64,000 nt of DNA, taken from Candidatus Krumholzibacteriia bacterium. GTDB lineage: Bacteria; Krumholzibacteriota; Krumholzibacteriia; LZORAL124-64-63. The DNA is taken from contig JAWKQQ010000008.1 in assembly GCA_041390065.1 (NCBI GenBank), positions 251,846 to 315,845 on the forward strand, given 5' to 3'. Positions 32,910 to 49,772 of the stretch are shown here, piece by piece (positions within the stretch are counted from its first letter, which is position 1; each line of letters opens with the position of its first letter). A model generated the notes under the pieces. It was not told the DNA's origin. It did not search any database and saw nothing but the letters and a program-made list of their open reading frames with translations. Position numbers and translations under genes: made by a program.

Positions 32910-34892
32910 TCAGGGCAGCAGGGTCACCCGCGTGGTCCGGTTCCGCTCGCCCGCCTGCAGACGCACCACGTAGGCGCCGGCAGCCACCCCGACGCCCCGG
33001 TCGTCACGGCCGTTCCAGCGGGCCGATTGCCAGGCGCCGCTGGCCGATCCGGCGGCGAGCCGCCGGACCTGACGCCCCCGCACGTCGTACACCACGACGC
33101 TCACCGGCGTGCCCAGCTCCGCGCGCCAGCTCACCACGGTGGCCGGGTTGCAAGGGTTCGGCACGGCCGGCAGGAGGCGCGCCGCCGTGGCCGGCCGCGG
33201 CCCGGCCGGCCCCTCCAGCTCGGCCTCCACGAGGCCGCCGCCGGCCAGGGTGAGCGCGAGATGGTAGGCGAGCGGACCCCGGGTCTGCCAGGCGGCGTCG
33301 GGGTCGTGCACCCGGCAGCGGCCGCCGTCGAGGGTGAGCAGCGGATCCGCGGGCGCTCCGTCGAGCAGCACGTCGACGCCGCCGGCGTGGCGGCGTTCGA
33401 GCCGCACCGCGGCGAGGTCGGCGGACGTCAGACCGGTCGCCAGGAGGCTGCCACGGACGCCGCCGTCGGCATCCCAGGCGCAGGCCCAGCCGCCGAGCTC
33501 GACGGGCACCGCGTCGCCGCTGGAATCGACGAAGCGTACCCAGCCGGCCACGGCCGAGCTCGCGACGTTGCCCTCCGGCGCTCCCACCGCGTAGTCGTCC
33601 GCGCCATCGCCGTCGAGATCGCCCGCCCAGGCGCACCAGGCGCCGAAATGATCGTCCGCCGGGGCGGCGACGAGGCCGTCGCGGATCACCTCGGTGAGCT
33701 GGTCGGCATCCGCGACGCTGCCCGAGCCGCCGGTCCACAGGAAGGCGCGGCCGGCCTCGGTGGCGGGCGAGTCGTCGTAAGGCGCCCCCAAAAGCACGTC
33801 GGGCAGGCTGCTGCCCGCGACATCGCCCACGCCGGCCACCGACCAGCCCAGGCGGGCCCCGCCGGCCGGACCGCCGCAGCTGCGGTCGGCCGTGGCGTCG
33901 GCGTCCAGGCCGCCGAAGAAGATCTCCACCCGGCCGCGTTCGGTGCCGCCGTCGTTGCAGAACGGCACCCCGACGGCGAGATCGGGATCGCCATCGCCGT
34001 CGAAGCTGCCCACGGCGGCCACGCTGTAGCCGAACTGGTTGTCGGCGGTCGAGGTCGCGTTGCTCTGGAGCGTGAGGTCGCTGGTCGTGTCCGGTCCGGG
34101 GCTGGGCGACGTGCTGCCGCGGTAGACGTAGACCGCGCCCTGCCGCAGGGCCGCTCCCGTGCCGTTGCTGGGAGCGCCGACGGCCAGGCAGCGGGCGCCC
34201 CCGCCGAGGAAGGCGCCCACCCCGGCCAGCGACCAGCCGAAGCGCTCGTAGGCCAGGTGCCCCAGCATCGTGAGGTCCGGCGTGGTGGCCGGGCCGCCCG
34301 GCGCGCCGAGGTACACGTAGGCCGCGCCGGCCTCGAGGCCGGCGGTGTCGGCCAGGGGTGCGCCGATCGCGAAATCGTCGCGCCCGTCGCCGTCGAGGTC
34401 GCCCAGGGCGGCCAGCGCCCAGCCGAAGTGCGCGCCGGTGGCCGGACTGGCGAGGGTGAGGTCCGGCGTGGCGGAGATCGGCGAACCGCCGTAATAGACA
34501 TAGACCCGGCCGCTCTCCGAGCCGCCGACATCGGAATAGGGCGCGCCGACGGCGAAATCGTCCACGCCGTCGTCGTTCACGTCGCCGATCCGGGCCACGG
34601 CGTGGCCGAACTGCTCGCCGCCGGCGCCGTTCCAGATGCGATTGGCGTTCAAGGTGATCGCCGTGCCACCGAACCATAGGTAGACGCGCCCGGCGTCCTG
34701 GCCCGTGGCGTCGGAACCGGGAGCGCCGACGAGGAGTTCCCCGTCTCCGTCGCCGTCCTGGTCGCCGAGGGCGCTGACGGCGGCTCCGAGGCGAAGACCG
34801 GCCGTTCCCGTTGCATCGCGCACGATGTCGGTGCCCCGGGCGACGGTCGAGAGCAGCAGGACGCTGACGAGCAACAACGGGATGGGGCGCAC
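32910..34892 (-). CDS. secreted FG-GAP repeat (integrin-alpha-like beta-propeller) protein with T9SS type-A C-terminal domain
   Basis: GTG start with a signal peptide. Seven or more FG..GDxDGDGxxDxxxGAP repeats. C-terminus AVPNPCNPATVVSW..VVVYDVRGRQVRRL..GAYVVRLQ. Confidence 0.65.
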   Translation of the reverse strand: MRPIPLLLVSVLLLSTVARGTDIVRDATGTAGLRLGAAVSALGDQDGDGDGELLVGAPGSDATGQDAGRVYLWFGGTAITLNANRIWNGAGGEQFGHAVARIGDVNDDGVDDFAVGAPYSDVGGSESGRVYVYYGGSPISATPDLTLASPATGAHFGWALAALGDLDGDGRDDFAIGAPLADTAGLEAGAAYVYLGAPGGPATTPDLTMLGHLAYERFGWSLAGVGAFLGGGARCLAVGAPSNGTGAALRQGAVYVYRGSTSPSPGPDTTSDLTLQSNATSTADNQFGYSVAAVGSFDGDGDPDLAVGVPFCNDGGTERGRVEIFFGGLDADATADRSCGGPAGGARLGWSVAGVGDVAGSSLPDVLLGAPYDDSPATEAGRAFLWTGGSGSVADADQLTEVIRDGLVAAPADDHFGAWCAWAGDLDGDGADDYAVGAPEGNVASSAVAGWVRFVDSSGDAVPVELGGWACAWDADGGVRGSLLATGLTSADLAAVRLERRHAGGVDVLLDGAPADPLLTLDGGRCRVHDPDAAWQTRGPLAYHLALTLAGGGLVEAELEGPAGPRPATAARLLPAVPNPCNPATVVSWRAELGTPVSVVVYDVRGRQVRRLAAGSASGAWQSARWNGRDDRGVGVAAGAYVVRLQAGERNRTTRVTLLP

Positions 34893-35078
34893 GACGGGCC
34901 TCCAGGGCGCGGCATCACGGCGCCTTCTCCCCCGTGGAGGGGCGTCGTCATGCGGTCGGACACGAGAGCATACACCGGCACGCGGGTTGCATAAAACCCT
35001 TGCTTGCCGGACCGTTCCGGGTTGATCTTTGCAAGACCCCGGCCAGATCCCCGCCCCGCGCGGGCCAGATGAGGTGAC

Positions 35079-36461
35079 ATGCGTTCGACGTTCCTCGTGG
35101 TTGCCCTGGCCACCCTGAGCCTGCTCATGGTGGCCGGTTGTCGCGACCAGCAGCCCCAGAGCACCGCCATGGGCGGCCCGGAAGAATTCCTGCCACCGGC
35201 GCCCCCGCTCGTGCCAGCGGCCCAGGAACCGGTCACGGAGACCACGGCGGCCGGCCCGGCCCTCGGGCGCGACGTCGAGCTGCGGATCCAGCGCGGGCAG
35301 ACGTTCTACGAGGCCCTGGCGGCACTGGGCATCCCCCACGGGGACATCATGGACCTCGTGGCCGCCGTCGGCGAGTTCCGCAACCTGCGCAAGGTGAAGC
35401 AGGGCGAGCTCTTCCGCATCGAGTTCACCGCCCACGACGAGCTGCGCGCCCTGGCCTTCGACCTCGACCTCGAGAGCTGGGTCCGCTACGAGCGGGGCGA
35501 GGACGGCGTCTTCACCCAGGAGCAGGGCAGCTACCCGGTCGAGCATCGCACCGTCGGCGTCGCTGGCGTCATCGAGTCGAGCCTCTACGAGGCGCTGCAG
35601 AAGAGCGGCGCGCCGCTCAACCTGGCCGCCAAGATCAACGACGTGCTCGGGTGGGATCTCGACTTCAGCCGCGACCCTCGCCAGGGCGACCGGTTCAGCA
35701 TCGTCTACGAGGAGATCTTCAAGGACGGGGAGTTCGTGCGCACCGGCCCGATCCTCGCCTGCAGCTACGAGGGCCGCGGCCACGACCTGGCCGCCTACCG
35801 CTACACCCTCAAGGACGACCACACGGGGTACTACGGCCGCGACGGCAAGAACCTCCAGAAGCAGCTCATGCGGGCCCCGCTGAACTACTCCCGCATCTCC
35901 AGCGGCTTCAGCTACCAGCGCAAGCATCCGGTGCTGGGCCGCGTGATGCCCCACCTGGGCATCGACTACGCCGCCCCGGTCGGCACGCCGGTCTATGCCG
36001 CGGGCGACGGCGTGGTCACGGACATGGGCAGCAAGAAGGGCAACGGACGCTACGTCCATCTGCGCCACACCAACCGCGAGTACGAGACCCTGTACCTGCA
36101 CTTCTCGCGTTTCGCCCGGGGACTGAAGGTGGGCACGCGCGTGCGCCAAGGCGACGTCATCGGCTACGTCGGCGCCACCGGCTACGCCACCGGCCCGCAC
36201 CTCGACTTCCGCGTCAAGAAGGGCGGCGCGTTCGTCAACCCACGCACCCTGAAGCTGCCCCCGGCCGAGCCGGTGCCCAGCGACCAACTGGCCAGCTTCC
36301 TGGCCCTGCGCGCGACCTACGACGAGGCGCTCGCCGAGGCCGGCGCGGGCCTGGCCGAGCCGGTGACGGTGGCCGCGCTCGACCGCGAGGCGCCACCGTG
36401 GTGGGACGCCCATGCCCAGGCCGCGCTGGCGTTGCCGCTGGGGTTGCGGGCGGCGGACTGA
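35079..36461 (+). CDS. M23-family peptidoglycan endopeptidase lipoprotein
   Basis: Lipobox LLMVAGC. LytM motifs HLGIDYAAPVGTPVYAAGDGVV, GNGRYVHLRH, GATGYATGPHLDF. Confidence 0.8.
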   Translation: MRSTFLVVALATLSLLMVAGCRDQQPQSTAMGGPEEFLPPAPPLVPAAQEPVTETTAAGPALGRDVELRIQRGQTFYEALAALGIPHGDIMDLVAAVGEFRNLRKVKQGELFRIEFTAHDELRALAFDLDLESWVRYERGEDGVFTQEQGSYPVEHRTVGVAGVIESSLYEALQKSGAPLNLAAKINDVLGWDLDFSRDPRQGDRFSIVYEEIFKDGEFVRTGPILACSYEGRGHDLAAYRYTLKDDHTGYYGRDGKNLQKQLMRAPLNYSRISSGFSYQRKHPVLGRVMPHLGIDYAAPVGTPVYAAGDGVVTDMGSKKGNGRYVHLRHTNREYETLYLHFSRFARGLKVGTRVRQGDVIGYVGATGYATGPHLDFRVKKGGAFVNPRTLKLPPAEPVPSDQLASFLALRATYDEALAEAGAGLAEPVTVAALDREAPPWWDAHAQAALALPLGLRAAD

Positions 36462-36571
36462 GCCGGACCGGACGTCCCCCCGCGTTGTCGCGACGACCTC
36501 CCGGGCCTTCCGCTGCCCGAGGGAGAGCCCTCGACGATATCCCAGCACCCGCTTCGGATTTCATGCTATCC

Positions 36572-36610
36572 TTGACGGGCGTCCCCGCCCCCTGGCCGCC
36601 AGCCCGTCAA
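36572..36610 (+). promoter_or_regulatory. inverted repeat (TTGACGGGC-N21-GCCCGTCAA) abutting the RBS of the downstream gene
   Basis: Perfect 9-bp inverted repeat. Its 3' arm ends at the AAGGAG Shine-Dalgarno of the 36621 ATG. Confidence 0.3.
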
Positions 36611-36620
36611 AGGAGACACC

Positions 36621-38621
36621 ATGAAGACCCGCCTCGTGCTCGCCCTCGCGCTCCTGGCCGCCGCCGCCCTGCCCGCGGTGGCCCTGGTCCCCCGGAACAT
36701 CGTCGTGGAGATGGGCTCGGCCACCTGGTGAGGCTACTGCCCGCGCGCCCGCGCCGGTCTGCAGGTCCTGCACGACCGCTACGACACCATCGAGTTCGAC
36801 TCCATCGAGTACATGGCCACCAGCGGCGGCCTGGGCTGTCCCGACTCGGACACCCGCATCACCTACTACGGCAACAACGGCCTGCCCCACCTGCTCTTCG
36901 ACGGCGGTGACCTGATCGTCGGCGCCGGCACCGACGCCGTCGACGGCAGCGTCTACGACCCCGTGGTGCAGAAGCTGCTCGACGACGCCACGCCCGTGAA
37001 GATGACGATGTCCGACGTGGTGCTCGACCCCCTGGGGTCCTCATGCACGGTGACCCTGGAGCTCACCGACGACCTCGCGAGCAGCGACGCCATCTACCTG
37101 CGGGTCGCCATCGTGGAAGACCAGGTGACCTACGCGAGCACCACCTACGAGAACATCCTGCGCGACCTGCTGCCGGACGTGCCACTGACGATCAGCGAGG
37201 CCGGCCAGACCCAGGTCGTGCCCCTGGCGTTCACCTTCAGCGGCAGCTGGGTGGCGGCCAACTCCCGGCTGGTCGCCTTCGTGCAGCGTGACGCCGACAA
37301 GCGGGTCCTGCAGACCTGCAACTCGCGCCCCACGCCCGACCATTCCCTGCGCTACTACGCCCTCGGCGAGCGCACCGTGATCGCCGGCGGCGAGGTCGTG
37401 TTCGACGAGGCCGCGCTGTTCAACACCGGCAACCTGGACGACACCTACCAGGTGACGCTCGACACGGCGGCCCTGCCCGCCGGCTGGAGCGCCCACTTCA
37501 CCCACGACGCCGGCGTCGACACCGACCTCACCCTGCCCCTGGCCGCGGGCGCCTCGGCGGCGTTCCACGTGGTCATCGACGCCGTCGGGACCGGCGAGGG
37601 CCAGGTCACCCTGACGTTCACGCCGCAGAGCGGCGGCGCCGCCCCCCGCGCCATCACCTACAAGGTCATCACCCCGGGCACCGAGATCCTGATCGTCGAC
37701 GACGACGGCGCCTATGACTACGAGACCCGCTACTTCGCGCCGGCGCTGGCGAGCACCGGCCGCAGCTTCGCCATCTGGGACCGCAACTCGACCGCCGTAT
37801 CGGCGGCCGTCCTCGACAACTTCGACGCCGTGATCTGGTCGTGCGGCTGGGCCTTCCCCACCGTGGACGCCGACGACCGCGCCGCCCTCGCCAGCTACCT
37901 CGACGGCGGCGGCAATCTGTTCATCACCGGCCAGGACATCGGCTGGGAGATGGCCGATCAGGGCGGCGCCGCGCTCGCCTGGTACCAGACCTACCTGCAT
38001 GCCACGTACGTCGCCGACGACACCAACCTGCTCACCCTCCAGGGCGTGCCGGGCGATCCCATCACCGACGGCCTCAGCCTCGCGATTTCCGGCGGCGACG
38101 GCGCCGACAACCAGGAGTACCCCAGCGACATCGACCCCCGCGGCGCGGGCGCCTCGGTGATCCTCACCTACGACGCCAGCCGCAACGGCGCCATCAAGGC
38201 CGACACCGGGCTCTACAAGGTGGTCTACCTGGCCTTCGGCTACGAGGCCATCAACAACCCGGCCGACCGCGCGGCCCTCATGGCGGGCATCGTGGACTGG
38301 CTGCTGCCCGACCCGCTGGACGCACCCGGCAACCGGGTACCCGCCGCCACGGCCGTCCTCGGCAGCGCGCCCAACCCGTTCAACCCCATGACGGTCATCC
38401 GCTACGCCGTGGCGACCGAGGCCGACGTCACGCTCGGCGTGTTCGACGTGCGCGGGCGGCTGGTGCGGCGGCTGGACCAAGGCCGACGCGCGGTCGGCGA
38501 GCACGCCGCCCGCTGGGACGGACTCGACCAGACCGGCCAGGCCCTCCCGTCGGGGACCTACGTCTGCCGGATCGTCGGGTCGGACTCCGCGCCGGCGGTC
38601 AAGCTGATGCTCGTGCGGTAG
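36621..38621 (+). CDS. candidate selenoprotein: secreted thioredoxin-fold (W-U-G-Y-C) domain fused to a large domain and T9SS type-A C-terminal domain; in-frame UGA at 36729-36731
   Basis: ATG after an AAGGAG RBS, then signal peptide MKTRLVLALALLAAAALPAVA. NIVVEMGSATW-TGA-GYCP continues in frame into ORF 36813..38621, which has no signal peptide of its own. An fdhF-like SECIS hairpin lies at 36756-36777. C-terminus PNPFNPMTVIRY..GVFDVRGRLVRRL. Confidence 0.5.
36756..36777 (+). ncRNA. putative bacterial SECIS element (mRNA hairpin)
   Basis: GGUC-UGCA-GGUCC-UGCA-c-GACC: stem with apical loop GGUCC about 35 nt 3' of the UGA. Strongly resembles the E. coli fdhF SECIS upper stem-loop GGUUGCAGGUCUGCACC. 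Confidence 0.4.
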
Positions 38622-44537: not shown

Positions 44538-46343
44538 TCAGGGGGCGAGCGTGACCTTGCCCGTGATGGCGGCGCCCTCGGCCGTCGTGATCCGGTAGAG
44601 GTACACGCCGCCCGGCGCCCGCAGGCCCCGGTCGTCCCGTCCGGGCCACACGAGCGTGTTCGGGCCGGCCGCGATCGGACCAGCGGGTGTCTGCCAGATC
44701 CGCCGGCCCCGCAGGTCGTACACGGTCGCCCGGCCGACCGTGGCGGCGGACGACGTGAACTGCAGGGCGACCTGCGGGTTGCCCGGGTTCGGCCGCGGCC
44801 CGAGGTCGGTCAACCCGGCGGCTGCGGTCGTCGGTTCGACCGCCAGCGCCGTCATGGTCTCCTTGATGTGGTCGACGTTGATGTGACCGTCGACCGCGGC
44901 GTCGACGATGGCGACGTAGACCTCGCGGCCGTCGTACGGCACGAGGTCCCACCAGCGCTCGGTCATGGTCGTCTGCCCGTCGCCGGATTCACGGTAGATC
45001 ATGGTGTCCGTCGCGGCGTCCATGAGCGCCACGTAGCAGTGTTCGGGGTCGTCGGTGCCGCCGACCCGCAGGCTCATGCTGAGGCCCGTGATGACGAACG
45101 GATGGCTCCGCAGCGAGCCCGTGGCCGCCTCGCCGAGCATCTGGCCCGGCTGGCCGCGGCCGGACAGCGGCCCCTGGAAGTACTCCGCGGAGCCGAAGTA
45201 GCACGTGCCGACCAGACCCACGCTCTCCTCGCCGCGGCGCTTCGGGTTGTCGCCGAAGGTGGGATTGCCGAGCACGCTGTTGCCCGTGAACGCGGCGAAC
45301 TCACGCGCCAACGGCGGCGTCCGGTGCACCGTGGGCGCGGCCAGTCCCTCGCCGAACCGCAGGGTGTCGGTCCGGACCACGAACGCCAGCTGGCCCAGAT
45401 GAGGCTCGCTGAAGGGCGCGATGCGCGAGAGCAGCCACGACTGCCCGCCGTCGAAGCTGTCGACCTCGGGCGCGAGGCCCTGGTCGATGATGGTGCGGGC
45501 GGCGAAGCTCCAGGCGCCGGGCTCGTTCGCCGCCAGGTGGCTGATGCCCGAGGTCCCGTACTCGTGGAACAGGAGGTGATGCACTCCCTGCCGGACGATG
45601 TACTGGCTGCTCTCCAGGGACGCGGTCGGGGTGGCGCTGCCGTTGAGCAGGAAGACCTCCGGGTCGGTCCAGGCATGCACGGTGATCGCGGTCGCCATCG
45701 CCAGCGCGGCGCGTCCGCCCGGCAGATCGTTCGTCCGCACGGTGGTCAGCATGTGCCACTGCCCGTCCTCGACGTAGAGATACGGGTCGCGGCACTCGCT
45801 CCACTGACCATCCGGATCGTAGAAGAACTCCGGCGGGGCCGGCTCCTGCACCGGGTTCAGCGGCGACTTCGACCAGTTCACCAGATCGGTCGAGTAGGCC
45901 GTGCAGATGCGCTGGTTGGAGGCGTCATCCACGCCGGTGTAAGCCATCCACCAGAGGTGGGTGCCGGCATCGTAGACCACGTCCGGCGCCCACAGGGCCC
46001 GCGACTCGTAGGGCGCCGAGGACACCGCGAGCACCTGGACAGGCGGCGACCAGTGGATCAGGTCTCCGCTCGTGCTGTACCAGATGTGGTCCGACGATCC
46101 GGGATAGGGGTCGTCCATCGGGATGGCCCCGTAGTAGAGGACGTACAGCGTGTTCCACTTCACGAGGCAGAAGTCCCAGACCTGCCAATCGGGATGCACG
46201 TAGTACGGTTGCTCGAAGTCGATGACATGGAGCGCGTGGGCCCCGACGGCCGGCAGACCGAGCAACGCGAGCACGAGCAGGCCGCGCGCCACGGCCGGCA
46301 GGCCGAGGCGCGAGGTCGTGCGGGCGAGGACGCCGAGGGTCAT
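44538..46343 (-). CDS. secreted GH32-like five-bladed beta-propeller protein with T9SS type-A CTD (paralog 1)
   Basis: Signal peptide. PYYVHPDWQVWDFC..LYVLYYG..HIWYSTSGDLIHWS parallels the GH32 N-terminal blocks, but WMNDPNG is replaced by WQVWDFC. RDP is present in SECRDPYLY. C-terminus PNPGNP..VYDLRGRRIW..GVYLYRI. Confidence 0.5.
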   Translation of the reverse strand: MTLGVLARTTSRLGLPAVARGLLVLALLGLPAVGAHALHVIDFEQPYYVHPDWQVWDFCLVKWNTLYVLYYGAIPMDDPYPGSSDHIWYSTSGDLIHWSPPVQVLAVSSAPYESRALWAPDVVYDAGTHLWWMAYTGVDDASNQRICTAYSTDLVNWSKSPLNPVQEPAPPEFFYDPDGQWSECRDPYLYVEDGQWHMLTTVRTNDLPGGRAALAMATAITVHAWTDPEVFLLNGSATPTASLESSQYIVRQGVHHLLFHEYGTSGISHLAANEPGAWSFAARTIIDQGLAPEVDSFDGGQSWLLSRIAPFSEPHLGQLAFVVRTDTLRFGEGLAAPTVHRTPPLAREFAAFTGNSVLGNPTFGDNPKRRGEESVGLVGTCYFGSAEYFQGPLSGRGQPGQMLGEAATGSLRSHPFVITGLSMSLRVGGTDDPEHCYVALMDAATDTMIYRESGDGQTTMTERWWDLVPYDGREVYVAIVDAAVDGHINVDHIKETMTALAVEPTTAAAGLTDLGPRPNPGNPQVALQFTSSAATVGRATVYDLRGRRIWQTPAGPIAAGPNTLVWPGRDDRGLRAPGGVYLYRITTAEGAAITGKVTLAP

Positions 46344-46447
46344 GTCGGGGCGGCCTCCAGATGGAGGAGAGAATGCACCCTATCGGGGGTGCTTTCGGAG
46401 GATTCTATACGATTTCGTTCTGCGCGTGTGGCGATATCGTGATTTCA

Positions 46448-48265: not shown

Positions 48266-48587
48266 CGGGTGTCGGCTCCTCCGGGTGACGCCACAGCGGT
48301 CCAGCGGTCGGACGGCGGCCCGATCCCATGGCGGGGATGCGTCGGGCCGACCGGACGAAAGATTATATCAAGGGATGGGGCTTGGGGTCAAATGAAGGTG
48401 GCGGGATTCCCCTCCCAGCCCCCGCCACGTCATGGTACAATCCGACGGTTCTGCCTCGGACATTGTGCGTGGGCCCGCGAAAGCCCGGATCTCGAGGTTC
48501 GACGACAAATAACCTGGGCTGGGGTCAACATTCTGCGGCCCTTTCGGCCCCTCCCGGTACGCGGCACATTTTCCCAGGCAGAACCGC

Positions 48588-49772
48588 ATGACAGAGATCA
48601 AGCCGCTGACGTCGTTGAGGGCCTTCGCCGCGTTCCTGGTCTTCATGTTTCACTACGCCAACGTCTACCGCCCAGAGAACCTGGGCATCCCCTTCGGCGG
48701 CGAGTGGATCCCGCTGATGCCCGTCTGGCGGCAGGGCCCCCTCGGCGTGTCCATCTTCTTCGTGCTCTCGGGGTTCCTCATCACCCGGATCTACTACGAC
48801 GGCATGGCGGACCGCCGGGTGCCCTTGCGGCTGTTCTTCGTCAAGCGCATCGCGCGCATCTGGCCGCTGTTCCTGGTCTTCGCGTGCGTCGAGCACGGGG
48901 TGAAGGTGGCCCAGGGCCTGTGGCGGCCGCACCTCGACTTCCTGGTCACCATGACCATGAGCCAGGGCTTCTTCTACGACCTGCGTTACGCCGGGCTGCC
49001 CACCGCGTGGTCGTTGACCGTGGAGGAGAGCTTCTACGCCCTGGCGCCCCTCGTCTTCCTGGCGGTGGCCCGGCTGGCCGGCCGGCGGCCGGCGCCCGGC
49101 GCCCTGGACCGGGCCGGCCTGGTCCGCCACGCCCTCGGGCTCGCGGTGGTGACCGCGGCGATGGTAGGCCTCGGCGAGGTGCTGGTGCGCCTGGTCCTGC
49201 ACCTGGGCTGGGACTGGGAAGGTTTCATGGGATCGCGCTTCCACATGCGCCACGCCACCATCTTCGGGCGGTTTCCCGAGTTCGCCCTCGGCATGCTGGC
49301 GGCCTTCATCCACCGGGGCGTGCCGCTGCCCAGGTACCTGGGCGGCCGGCGCGCCCCCGCGCTCGCGATCACGACGTTCGGCCTGATCGGCCTGTCGATG
49401 TGGGCCAAGGACTGGACCGTCCAGCATCCATCGGCCGGGGCTGGGCTGGCATCGACCGGCCTGTCATACGCCGTGGCCGTGCTCACCGCCGTGCTGATCC
49501 TGGCCCTGAGCGTCGACGGCAGCCGCCTCTACCGGTGGCTGTCCCACGGTCTGCTCGTCTACCTGGGCAAGATCTCGTACGGCTTCTACCTGATCCAGCT
49601 GACGGTGCTGCTGGCCCCGGCCGTCGCGCTCTCCCACCGGCTGGGCTACTGGCGGGTGCCGGTGCTGCTCGTGCTCACCAACCTGATCTGCGCCGGGTTC
49701 TACCAGTTGGTGGAGGTGCCGGCGCGGCGCGCGATCGTCGCGCGCTGGGGCGGACGCCGGACGACGGCATGA
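48588..49772 (+). CDS. acyltransferase family 3 (OatA/NolL-like) membrane protein
   Basis: About 10 TM helices. N-terminal LRAFAAFLVFMFH signature. Confidence 0.8.
   Translation: MTEIKPLTSLRAFAAFLVFMFHYANVYRPENLGIPFGGEWIPLMPVWRQGPLGVSIFFVLSGFLITRIYYDGMADRRVPLRLFFVKRIARIWPLFLVFACVEHGVKVAQGLWRPHLDFLVTMTMSQGFFYDLRYAGLPTAWSLTVEESFYALAPLVFLAVARLAGRRPAPGALDRAGLVRHALGLAVVTAAMVGLGEVLVRLVLHLGWDWEGFMGSRFHMRHATIFGRFPEFALGMLAAFIHRGVPLPRYLGGRRAPALAITTFGLIGLSMWAKDWTVQHPSAGAGLASTGLSYAVAVLTAVLILALSVDGSRLYRWLSHGLLVYLGKISYGFYLIQLTVLLAPAVALSHRLGYWRVPVLLVLTNLICAGFYQLVEVPARRAIVARWGGRRTTA

Follow-up and report, generated by a model that had tools for sequence, protein, structure and literature searches.

Does the in-frame UGA near the start of a long open reading frame in this DNA encode selenocysteine (Sec), and is the hairpin downstream of it the selenocysteine insertion sequence (SECIS) that would make it do so? 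The stretch analyzed, hereafter the window, comprises 64,000 nt of a Candidatus Krumholzibacteriia contig. A first-pass annotation had noted that a hairpin at positions 36756-36777, downstream of the UGA, closely resembled the upper stem-loop of the Escherichia coli fdhF SECIS. We consider it highly probable that a real selenoprotein gene lies at 36621-38621 and that this hairpin serves as its functional SECIS, because the UGA aligns with a cysteine in homologs, the position of the hairpin is kept, its stem covaries, it is lost where the homologs carry cysteine, and it fits the consensus of bacterial SECIS elements (bSECIS). The SECIS reading offered at first pass thus found support in the covariation across orthologs and in the degradation of the hairpin in the cysteine forms. 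The likeness to fdhF fared less well and is taken up at the end.

The in-frame UGA and the hairpin downstream of it

The gene and its start region comprise the following features.

36621-38621, plus strand: predicted selenoprotein gene of 666 codons including one in-frame UGA, with a TAG stop at 38619-38621.
36610-36615, plus strand: Shine-Dalgarno-like AAGGAG, 5 nt 5' of the ATG at 36621, read from the sequence.
36621-36689, plus strand: predicted signal peptide MKTRLVLALALLAAAALPAVALV, with a positive N-terminal end and a hydrophobic core, assigned by inspection.
36729-36731, plus strand: in-frame UGA, predicted Sec codon 37, in the motif T-W-U-G-Y-C-P.

The UGA takes the place of the first cysteine in a W-C-G-Y-C-P redox motif, with U-G-Y-C as residues 37-40. 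It is preceded by the signal peptide, for which the orthologs have equivalent N-termini, and then by ...VVEMGSATW; the residues after it are GYCPRARAGLQVLHDRY... The GC content of third codon positions (GC3) is 0.94 before the TGA and 0.95 after it. A GC3-filtered scan of the window for in-frame TGAs returned 22 candidates, and the one at 36729 was the only one in a protein-like context. TGA serves as an ordinary stop in 19 of the 37 open reading frames (ORFs) of the window and is the commonest stop there, so the genetic code is the standard one.

The corresponding public record (P0006, 100% identical, on a 317-kb contig) is a 602-aa protein from Candidatus Krumholzibacteriia, translated from the ATG at 36813 and named "FlgD immunoglobulin-like domain containing protein". 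This gene model (36813-38621) contains neither the signal peptide nor the Sec redox motif, and no Shine-Dalgarno site was found upstream of its ATG. Nearly all database proteins of the family likewise begin at a methionine 3' of the TGA, which is a signature of unrecognized selenoprotein genes.

For the RNA, bases were numbered from the U of the UGA at 36729 as +1, which places 36756 at +28. The elements near the UGA are given below.

36756-36777, plus strand: candidate SECIS hairpin, with lower stem 36756-36759/36774-36777 (GGUC/GACC).
36760-36763 (plus G36764) and 36769-36772 (plus C36768), plus strand: upper stem of the hairpin, UGCA(G)/(C)UGCA.
36764-36768, plus strand: apical loop GGUCC, with G37-U38 at 36765-36766.
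36773, plus strand: bulged C (C45) on the 3' strand, the sole bulge.
36743-36754 (+15 to +26), plus strand: possible small spacer hairpin GCGC-GCCC-GCGC, present in the minimum free energy (MFE) folds but not established.

Read directly, positions 36756-36777 of the plus strand are GGTCTGCAGGTCCTGCACGACC, and the sequence, coordinates, UGCA/UGCA stem, bulged C and GGUC/GACC lower stem are exactly as they had been described. The MFE fold of these 22 nt, computed with ViennaRNA, is (((((((((...))))).)))) at -10.5 kcal/mol and accounts for 92% of the ensemble. Compared with dinucleotide shuffles it has z = -2.67, and 2 of 200 shuffles were as good. The stable fold whose absence had been named as a refutation is therefore present, and it is kept when the context is widened to 62, 101 or 102 nt, where a C27-G50 pair is added (-12.9 kcal/mol with this pair). 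The apical GGUCC pentaloop of the first description holds if G36 and C40 are left unpaired; ViennaRNA closes G36-C40, so that a GUC triloop remains. The nearest orthologs have A instead of C at position 40, which gives the pentaloop GGUCA there. The hairpin begins 24 nt past the UGA (27 bases counted from its U) and spans +28 to +49. Its loop starts at +36, so that the spacing from UGA to loop is 32 nt with the pentaloop or 33 nt with the triloop, close to the earlier estimate of about 35 nt and inside the range of 16-37 nt.

The small GCGC-GCCC-GCGC hairpin fills the spacer between the UGA and the candidate SECIS, with a single nucleotide separating it from the base of the latter, and can also be found in several orthologs. 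Its 3-bp equivalent (+18 to +27) showed no significant covariation in 25 sequences. Two of the three pairs are forced by Ala codons, and the U-A/C-G/U-G variation at wobble positions, seen in 11 of the 25, is not significant.

Orthologs, covariation and synonymous sites

Searches at the protein and DNA levels found family members only in metagenome-assembled genomes of Krumholzibacteriota and in metagenomes. Codon 37 is TGA in 22 distinct orthologous DNA sequences and TGC in four distinct members: L003 (identical to L012 and L021), L004, L008 and L028. These four TGC members encode the motif W-C-G-Y-C-P, which was also read in the proteins P0001, P0003 and P0014, and the flanks T-W-[U/C]-x-[YF]-C-P do not vary across Sec and Cys forms. 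An in-frame TGA that aligns to cysteine between conserved flanks is the standard comparative evidence for a selenoprotein gene (PMC1976440), and this family presents it, with TGA against Cys in homologs and both flanks kept. One 2.37-Mb contig (L013) carries two tandem paralogs about 2.2 kb apart (at 1922 and 4126), both with the in-frame TGA and both counted among the 22.

Some of the recovered sequences are defective in their later parts. L004 (P0003) contains an assembly or frameshift artefact by which its C-terminus becomes PilM-like, the source of spurious PilM matches. L026 loses the frame after SGGLSCP, and the tails of L002 (P0004) and P0005 are low-complexity and frameshifted.

Hairpin positions were compared on gap-free alignments anchored on the flanks of the UGA; MAFFT alignments of the hairpin-only sequences were dropped, as the repeated GGTC caused them to be misaligned. 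For 17 of the 22 Sec forms the best local fold is a hairpin at +28 to +49 that has the Val-codon G37-U38 in its loop, with energies from -9.0 to -15.2 kcal/mol. Its variants are as follows.

Window, L005, L007 and L015: GGUC-UGCA-[GGUC(C/A)]-UGCA-C-GACC.
L024 and L025: GGUC-UCGC-[CGUGU]-GCGA-A-GACC.
L023, L027 and L014: G(G)UCUCACA-[GUU]-UGUGAGAC.
L013, both paralogs: CUCGC-[CGUGU]-GCG(A/G)G.
L011, L016, L017, L020 and L026: GGUC-UGGC-[hexaloop]-GCUG-GACC.

The upper stem covaries between clades, being UGCA/UGCA, UCGC/GCGA, UCACA/UGUGA or UGGC/GCUG. In the 12 sequences that share the register of the window, all four pairs of the upper stem form in every sequence, and three of them show full swaps (C-G in 7 and G-C in 5; C-G in 5, G-C in 4 and A-U in 3; C-G in 7 and A-U in 5). 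Across this set 86.5% of cells are paired vs. at most 52% in slid controls, and the covariation score of 0.525 was reached by 0 of 500 shuffles, a statistic that overstates independence, the sequences being related. The nine sequences in the hexaloop register gave similar figures (90.3% of cells paired vs. at most 43% when slid). RNAalifold, run unguided, returned the same helices, and no other helix near the UGA had significant covariation. Within the upper stem one Leu codon is invariant. Its synonymous wobble base, +33, is either G or C, and in 12 of 12 sequences +43 carries the matching C or G. Constraint at the protein level is no explanation for a joint switch at a synonymous site.

The Gly codon at +28 to +30 (36756-36758) gave a second synonymous signal. 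Seventeen of the 22 Sec forms use GGU here, and all four Cys forms use GGC or GGA. GGU makes up 2 of the 61 Gly codons of the window gene and 8% of Gly codons in the window, and its U pairs with A47. Sec forms that have GGC show a changed partner, either C30-G47 in place of U30-A47 (L009) or C30-G46 (L014 and the first L013 paralog, L013a). When ten codons of the window sequence were recoded synonymously, the mean energy was -7.5 kcal/mol vs. -13.7 kcal/mol for the native sequence, and the native fold beat 99.8% of recodings drawn with uniform codon usage (0.2% were as good). The equivalent hairpin is weak or absent in the four Cys forms, at -4.7, -8.3, -3.9 and -2.0 kcal/mol vs. a median of -11.7 kcal/mol in the Sec forms (Mann-Whitney p ~0.006, uncorrected for phylogeny).

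Evidence against the SECIS reading and competing explanations

A number of observations weigh against our conclusion. The first is the level of chance. As to whether such a hairpin is common elsewhere, the exact 22-mer, with up to 3 mismatches allowed, occurs as a single copy in the window (0 expected), but generic bSECIS-like MFE hairpins follow 8.1% of the 1371 TGA trinucleotides in this window of 70% GC. Hairpins at least as good as the one at 36756-36777 (8 or more base pairs, an energy no higher than -10.5 kcal/mol and a GU in the loop) follow 2.9% of them. Since such hairpins are common in a GC-rich window, the fold alone is weak evidence, and the comparative data carry the case. Among these data, recoding with the gene's own codon usage gave only a marginal result (6.6% of recodings as good, 93% beaten), and the shuffle statistics share the limit of relatedness given above. 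G37-U38 is invariant in 25 aligned sequences, but these include the Cys forms L003, L004 and L008 (the fourth, L028, has AU), and the dinucleotide also belongs to a Val codon, so that its invariance is not specific evidence.

The second group of observations concerns the Sec machinery and known elements. Pfam scans covering 30 ORFs of the 64-kb window turned up no selA, selB or selD, and ARAGORN found no tRNA of any kind there, hence no tRNA-Sec; it is only the gene family itself that suggests a Sec trait for this genome. There was no Rfam match in the window at gathering thresholds, nor in 36600-36900 at E values up to 10. The spacing in E. coli, the source of the only well-characterized system (fdhF), is 13-14 nt shorter.

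Lastly, five Sec orthologs do not fit the +28 to +49 hairpin (L001, L018, L002, L010 and, ambiguously, L006). Three of these, L001 (296-340), L018 (1579-1623) and L002 (183-227), prefer the hairpin (C)CGCC-[GGUCU]-GGCG(G), whose loop at +28 to +32 lies 8 nt nearer the UGA (-8.9 to -13.7 kcal/mol vs. -4.1 kcal/mol for the +36 loop). L016, L017, L006 and L025 are able to form hairpins with either the +28 or the +36 loop. L010 (3109-3160, identical to L022) is a Sec form closely related to the Cys forms L004 and L008. Its +36 hairpin is weak (-7.2 kcal/mol), and it can form CGCGCC-[CGUGCU]-GGCGUG at +16 to +33, with G-U at +23/+24 as in the E. coli spacing. The L001-type hairpin may closely resemble the Moorella thermoacetica fdhA SECIS of the SelB co-crystals. 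Our residual doubt comes from these alternative hairpins, from the frequency of generic hairpins, and from the machinery not having been seen in the window.

We hold as a tentative idea, with the odds rather against it, that the SECIS has moved or been remodelled within the family while the protein alignment stayed gap-free, with loops at +36 to +40, at +28 to +32, and in L010 maybe at a third place. If all of these were functional, SelB and the ribosome of Krumholzibacteriota would tolerate a 14-nt range of UGA-to-loop spacing in orthologous mRNAs. In that case the family would offer a natural test of SECIS "sliding" and of how RNA structure dictates the amino acids of a helix beside the active site.

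The same orthologs provide an argument for a reading in which the UGA encodes Sec and the operative SECIS of the window gene lies elsewhere, for instance in the first GGUC (+28 to +31) or in a larger structure that includes the +15 to +26 hairpin, which would make the +28 to +49 hairpin incidental. L001, L018 and L002 prefer the +28 to +32 loop, L025 and L006 are ambiguous, L010/L022 has the +16 to +33 hairpin instead, and generic hairpins are frequent. In the window itself, however, the alternative hairpin cannot form (-0.9 vs. -12.2 kcal/mol), and the +28 to +49 hairpin covaries across 21 sequences while no other helix does so significantly. We regard this reading as unlikely.

Less likely still is read-through of the UGA that involves neither SelB nor Sec and depends on a near-cognate tRNA (Trp or Cys) or on a suppressor specific to the lineage, with the hairpin acting only as a roadblock or pause site that promotes it. 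Downstream RNA structure can stimulate stop codon read-through in other systems, and the Sec machinery was not seen in the window. The UGA is nevertheless placed exactly at the catalytic cysteine of a CxxC motif, the classic site of Sec/Cys exchange, and TGA is the commonest ordinary stop in the window. Moreover, the loop keeps the G-U of bSECIS elements, and the related curated family is a UxxC selenoprotein (PMC2398784).

The least probable explanation is that the TGA is a real stop (a pseudogene lesion or assembly error), that the protein starts at ATG 36813 as in the public 602-aa annotation, and that the hairpin is a chance GC-rich fold of the quality found after 2.9% of TGAs: the TGA is shared by 22 distinct sequences from independent assemblies, each with conserved coding sequence, signal peptide and Shine-Dalgarno site upstream, and it is the 602-aa version that has neither signal peptide nor redox motif, from an ATG with no Shine-Dalgarno site.

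If the hairpin at 36756-36777 is the SECIS of this gene, as we conclude, its action can be proposed by analogy with E. coli. A ribosome arriving at the UGA at 36729 would have the hairpin folded again immediately outside its mRNA entrance. SelB would bind G37-U38 in the apical loop through its C-terminal domain and deliver Sec-tRNA(Sec) to the A site. The complex SelB-GTP-Sec-tRNA(Sec) would outcompete release factor 2, and the UGA would be read as selenocysteine, not stop. Binding by SelB, the actual insertion of Sec and the redox function of the product are thus proposed from related systems.

The predicted product, its neighbourhood and known relatives

The product would be exported, and would consist of an N-terminal thioredoxin-like domain with U-G-Y-C, an Omp28-like beta-sandwich, a middle domain and a FlgD-Ig C-terminus. 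Pfam gave a sub-threshold Omp28 match at aa 81-234 and a FlgD-Ig match (FlgD_ig) at aa 595-652. The middle domain, at about aa 340-570 (37640-38330; ILIVDDDG...FITGQDIGWE...), had no Pfam or NCBIfam match and is kept across the full-length orthologs P0007 and P0010-P0014. A profile of the N-terminal region had marginal matches in the Protein Data Bank (PDB) to HBP35 (5y1a, E 0.022) and, in an alignment that extends through the cis-Pro, to a Methanocaldococcus jannaschii thioredoxin (E 0.05). In the AlphaFold2 model of the Cys ortholog P0001, residues 1-120 have a predicted local distance difference test (pLDDT) score below 50, a consequence of the truncation of most homologs in the databases. 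The product is presumably an extracytoplasmic thiol/selenol oxidoreductase with Sec-x-x-Cys on a probable thioredoxin fold, by analogy with surface proteins of the HBP35/Omp28 type and with the GOS_C family compared below.

The window is chromosomal, with a cluster of ribosomal protein genes, rpoA and secY, together with metG, oxaloacetate decarboxylase and other genes. A FlgD-Ig C-terminal domain is common to the genes at 32910-34680, 36621-38621 and 44538-46379, which suggests a common secretion or sorting route. Two further observations were made in the window. On the minus strand, a 1216-codon stop-to-stop frame at 32910-36560 overlaps an M23 peptidase gene (35079-36461, plus strand), and its Pfam matches (FG-GAP repeats, FlgD-Ig) fall only in its 3' part, at about 32910-34680. 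An imperfect palindrome or hairpin of about 20 bp lies at 49315-49357 (plus strand, -43 kcal/mol, z = -4.4), inside an acyltransferase_3 ORF (48513-49772, plus strand).

The corrected gene model restores the signal peptide and redox centre that the public 602-aa record leaves out, as do nearly all database entries of the clade. It indicates the use of selenocysteine in the little-known phylum Krumholzibacteriota, and in a large exported multi-domain protein. The gap-free set of 22 Sec and 4 Cys forms shows a SECIS internal to an ORF constraining both synonymous sites and the choice of amino acids. A literature search on Omp28 selenoproteins, or on selenocysteine in Krumholzibacteria, found nothing usable.

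We compared the element first with the bSECIS consensus of Zhang & Gladyshev (bSECISearch; restated in PMC13188914, Fig. 2A), in which the loop measures 3-9 nt and the upper stem 4-16 bp. The loop carries G in its first two positions, typically as N1-G-[G/U]-N-N2 with N1 and N2 paired (PMC13188914), the spacing from UGA to loop is 16-37 nt (PMC13188914; also PMC10778597), and the MFE is -7.5 kcal/mol or lower (PMC13188914). The window hairpin lies just 3' of the in-frame UGA, inside the same ORF. Its loop has 3 or 5 nt and its upper stem 4-5 bp, the whole hairpin counting 9-10 bp and a single bulge. The loop sequence G36-G37-U38-C39-C40, with G36 and C40 able to pair, follows the pattern. The spacing of 32-33 nt is near the upper end of the range, and the energy is -10.5 to -12.9 kcal/mol. 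There is no essential difference from a consensus that is itself loose (8% of window TGAs satisfy it).

The comparison with E. coli fdhF gave a mixed result. The fdhF sequence quoted at first pass, TGACACGGCCCATCGGTTGCAGGTCTGCACC..., was correct and is 100% identical in the fdhF of more than 5400 E. coli genomes. The minimal upper stem-loop is as follows.

E. coli fdhF, +15 to +31: GGUUGCAGGUCUGCACC.

This 17-nt minimal SECIS (positions 15-31) starts 11 nt past the UGA (PMC8659212). It has a 5' bulged U17 and G23-U24 in its loop, and U17 and G23 contact SelB (PMC8659212). The two elements share the UGCA/UGCA stem, GGUC in the loop, 13 identical bases in UGCAGGUC-UGCAC, the G-U of the apical loop (G37-U38 in the window), and SelB as presumed ligand. 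The stem likeness described at first pass is real. The window hairpin lies 24 nt past the UGA with its GU at +37/+38, vs. 11 nt and +23/+24 in fdhF, and its loop has one base more. Its bulge, C45, is on the 3' strand and no counterpart of U17; C45 is itself unconserved, being missing from the hexaloop-type and L023-type orthologs. The stem identity is coincidental, because it is confined to one subclade and the other orthologs use other stems; what the family shares throughout is where the hairpin lies and the GU in its loop, and nothing else.

At the protein level, the haemin-binding HBP35 of Porphyromonas gingivalis (PDB 5y1a), an exported, thioredoxin-like surface protein, has the same W-C-G-Y-C-P after a beta-strand. 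It is the best match among solved structures, with a marginal E value of 0.022 over 38 residues (27-63 of the window protein) and with Cys and not Sec in HBP35, and the remainder is unrelated as far as tested. HBP35 also has a C-terminal sorting domain. The motif and the export shared by the two proteins may hint at the function of the window protein.

The best NCBIfam match was NF045500, "Omp28-related selenoprotein" (E 2.7e-13, residues 26-232), with a score of 50 bits vs. a curated cut-off of 200, which makes the window protein homologous but outside the equivalog. A 2026 review of the prokaryotic selenoproteome equates NF045500 with "Hypothetical protein GOS_C", of UxxC type (PMC13188914, Table 1), a family whose original prediction came from Global Ocean Sampling reads and whose fold was described as thioredoxin-like (PMC2398784). 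In both, a UxxC near the N-terminus is joined to an Omp28-like region and Sec and Cys forms coexist; the thioredoxin-like domain of GOS_C has a probable counterpart in the window protein. Compared with GOS_C, the window protein is much longer, at 666 aa, and carries in addition a middle domain and a FlgD-Ig domain at its C-terminus; it comes from Krumholzibacteriota and not from reads of marine surface plankton, in a clade whose annotations are N-terminally truncated. The mechanism, the class of element and the broader protein family are already known or predicted, and no new mechanism is involved. What is new is a Krumholzibacteriota clade that scores below the curated threshold of the family, its longer multi-domain architecture, and its systematic mis-annotation in public records.

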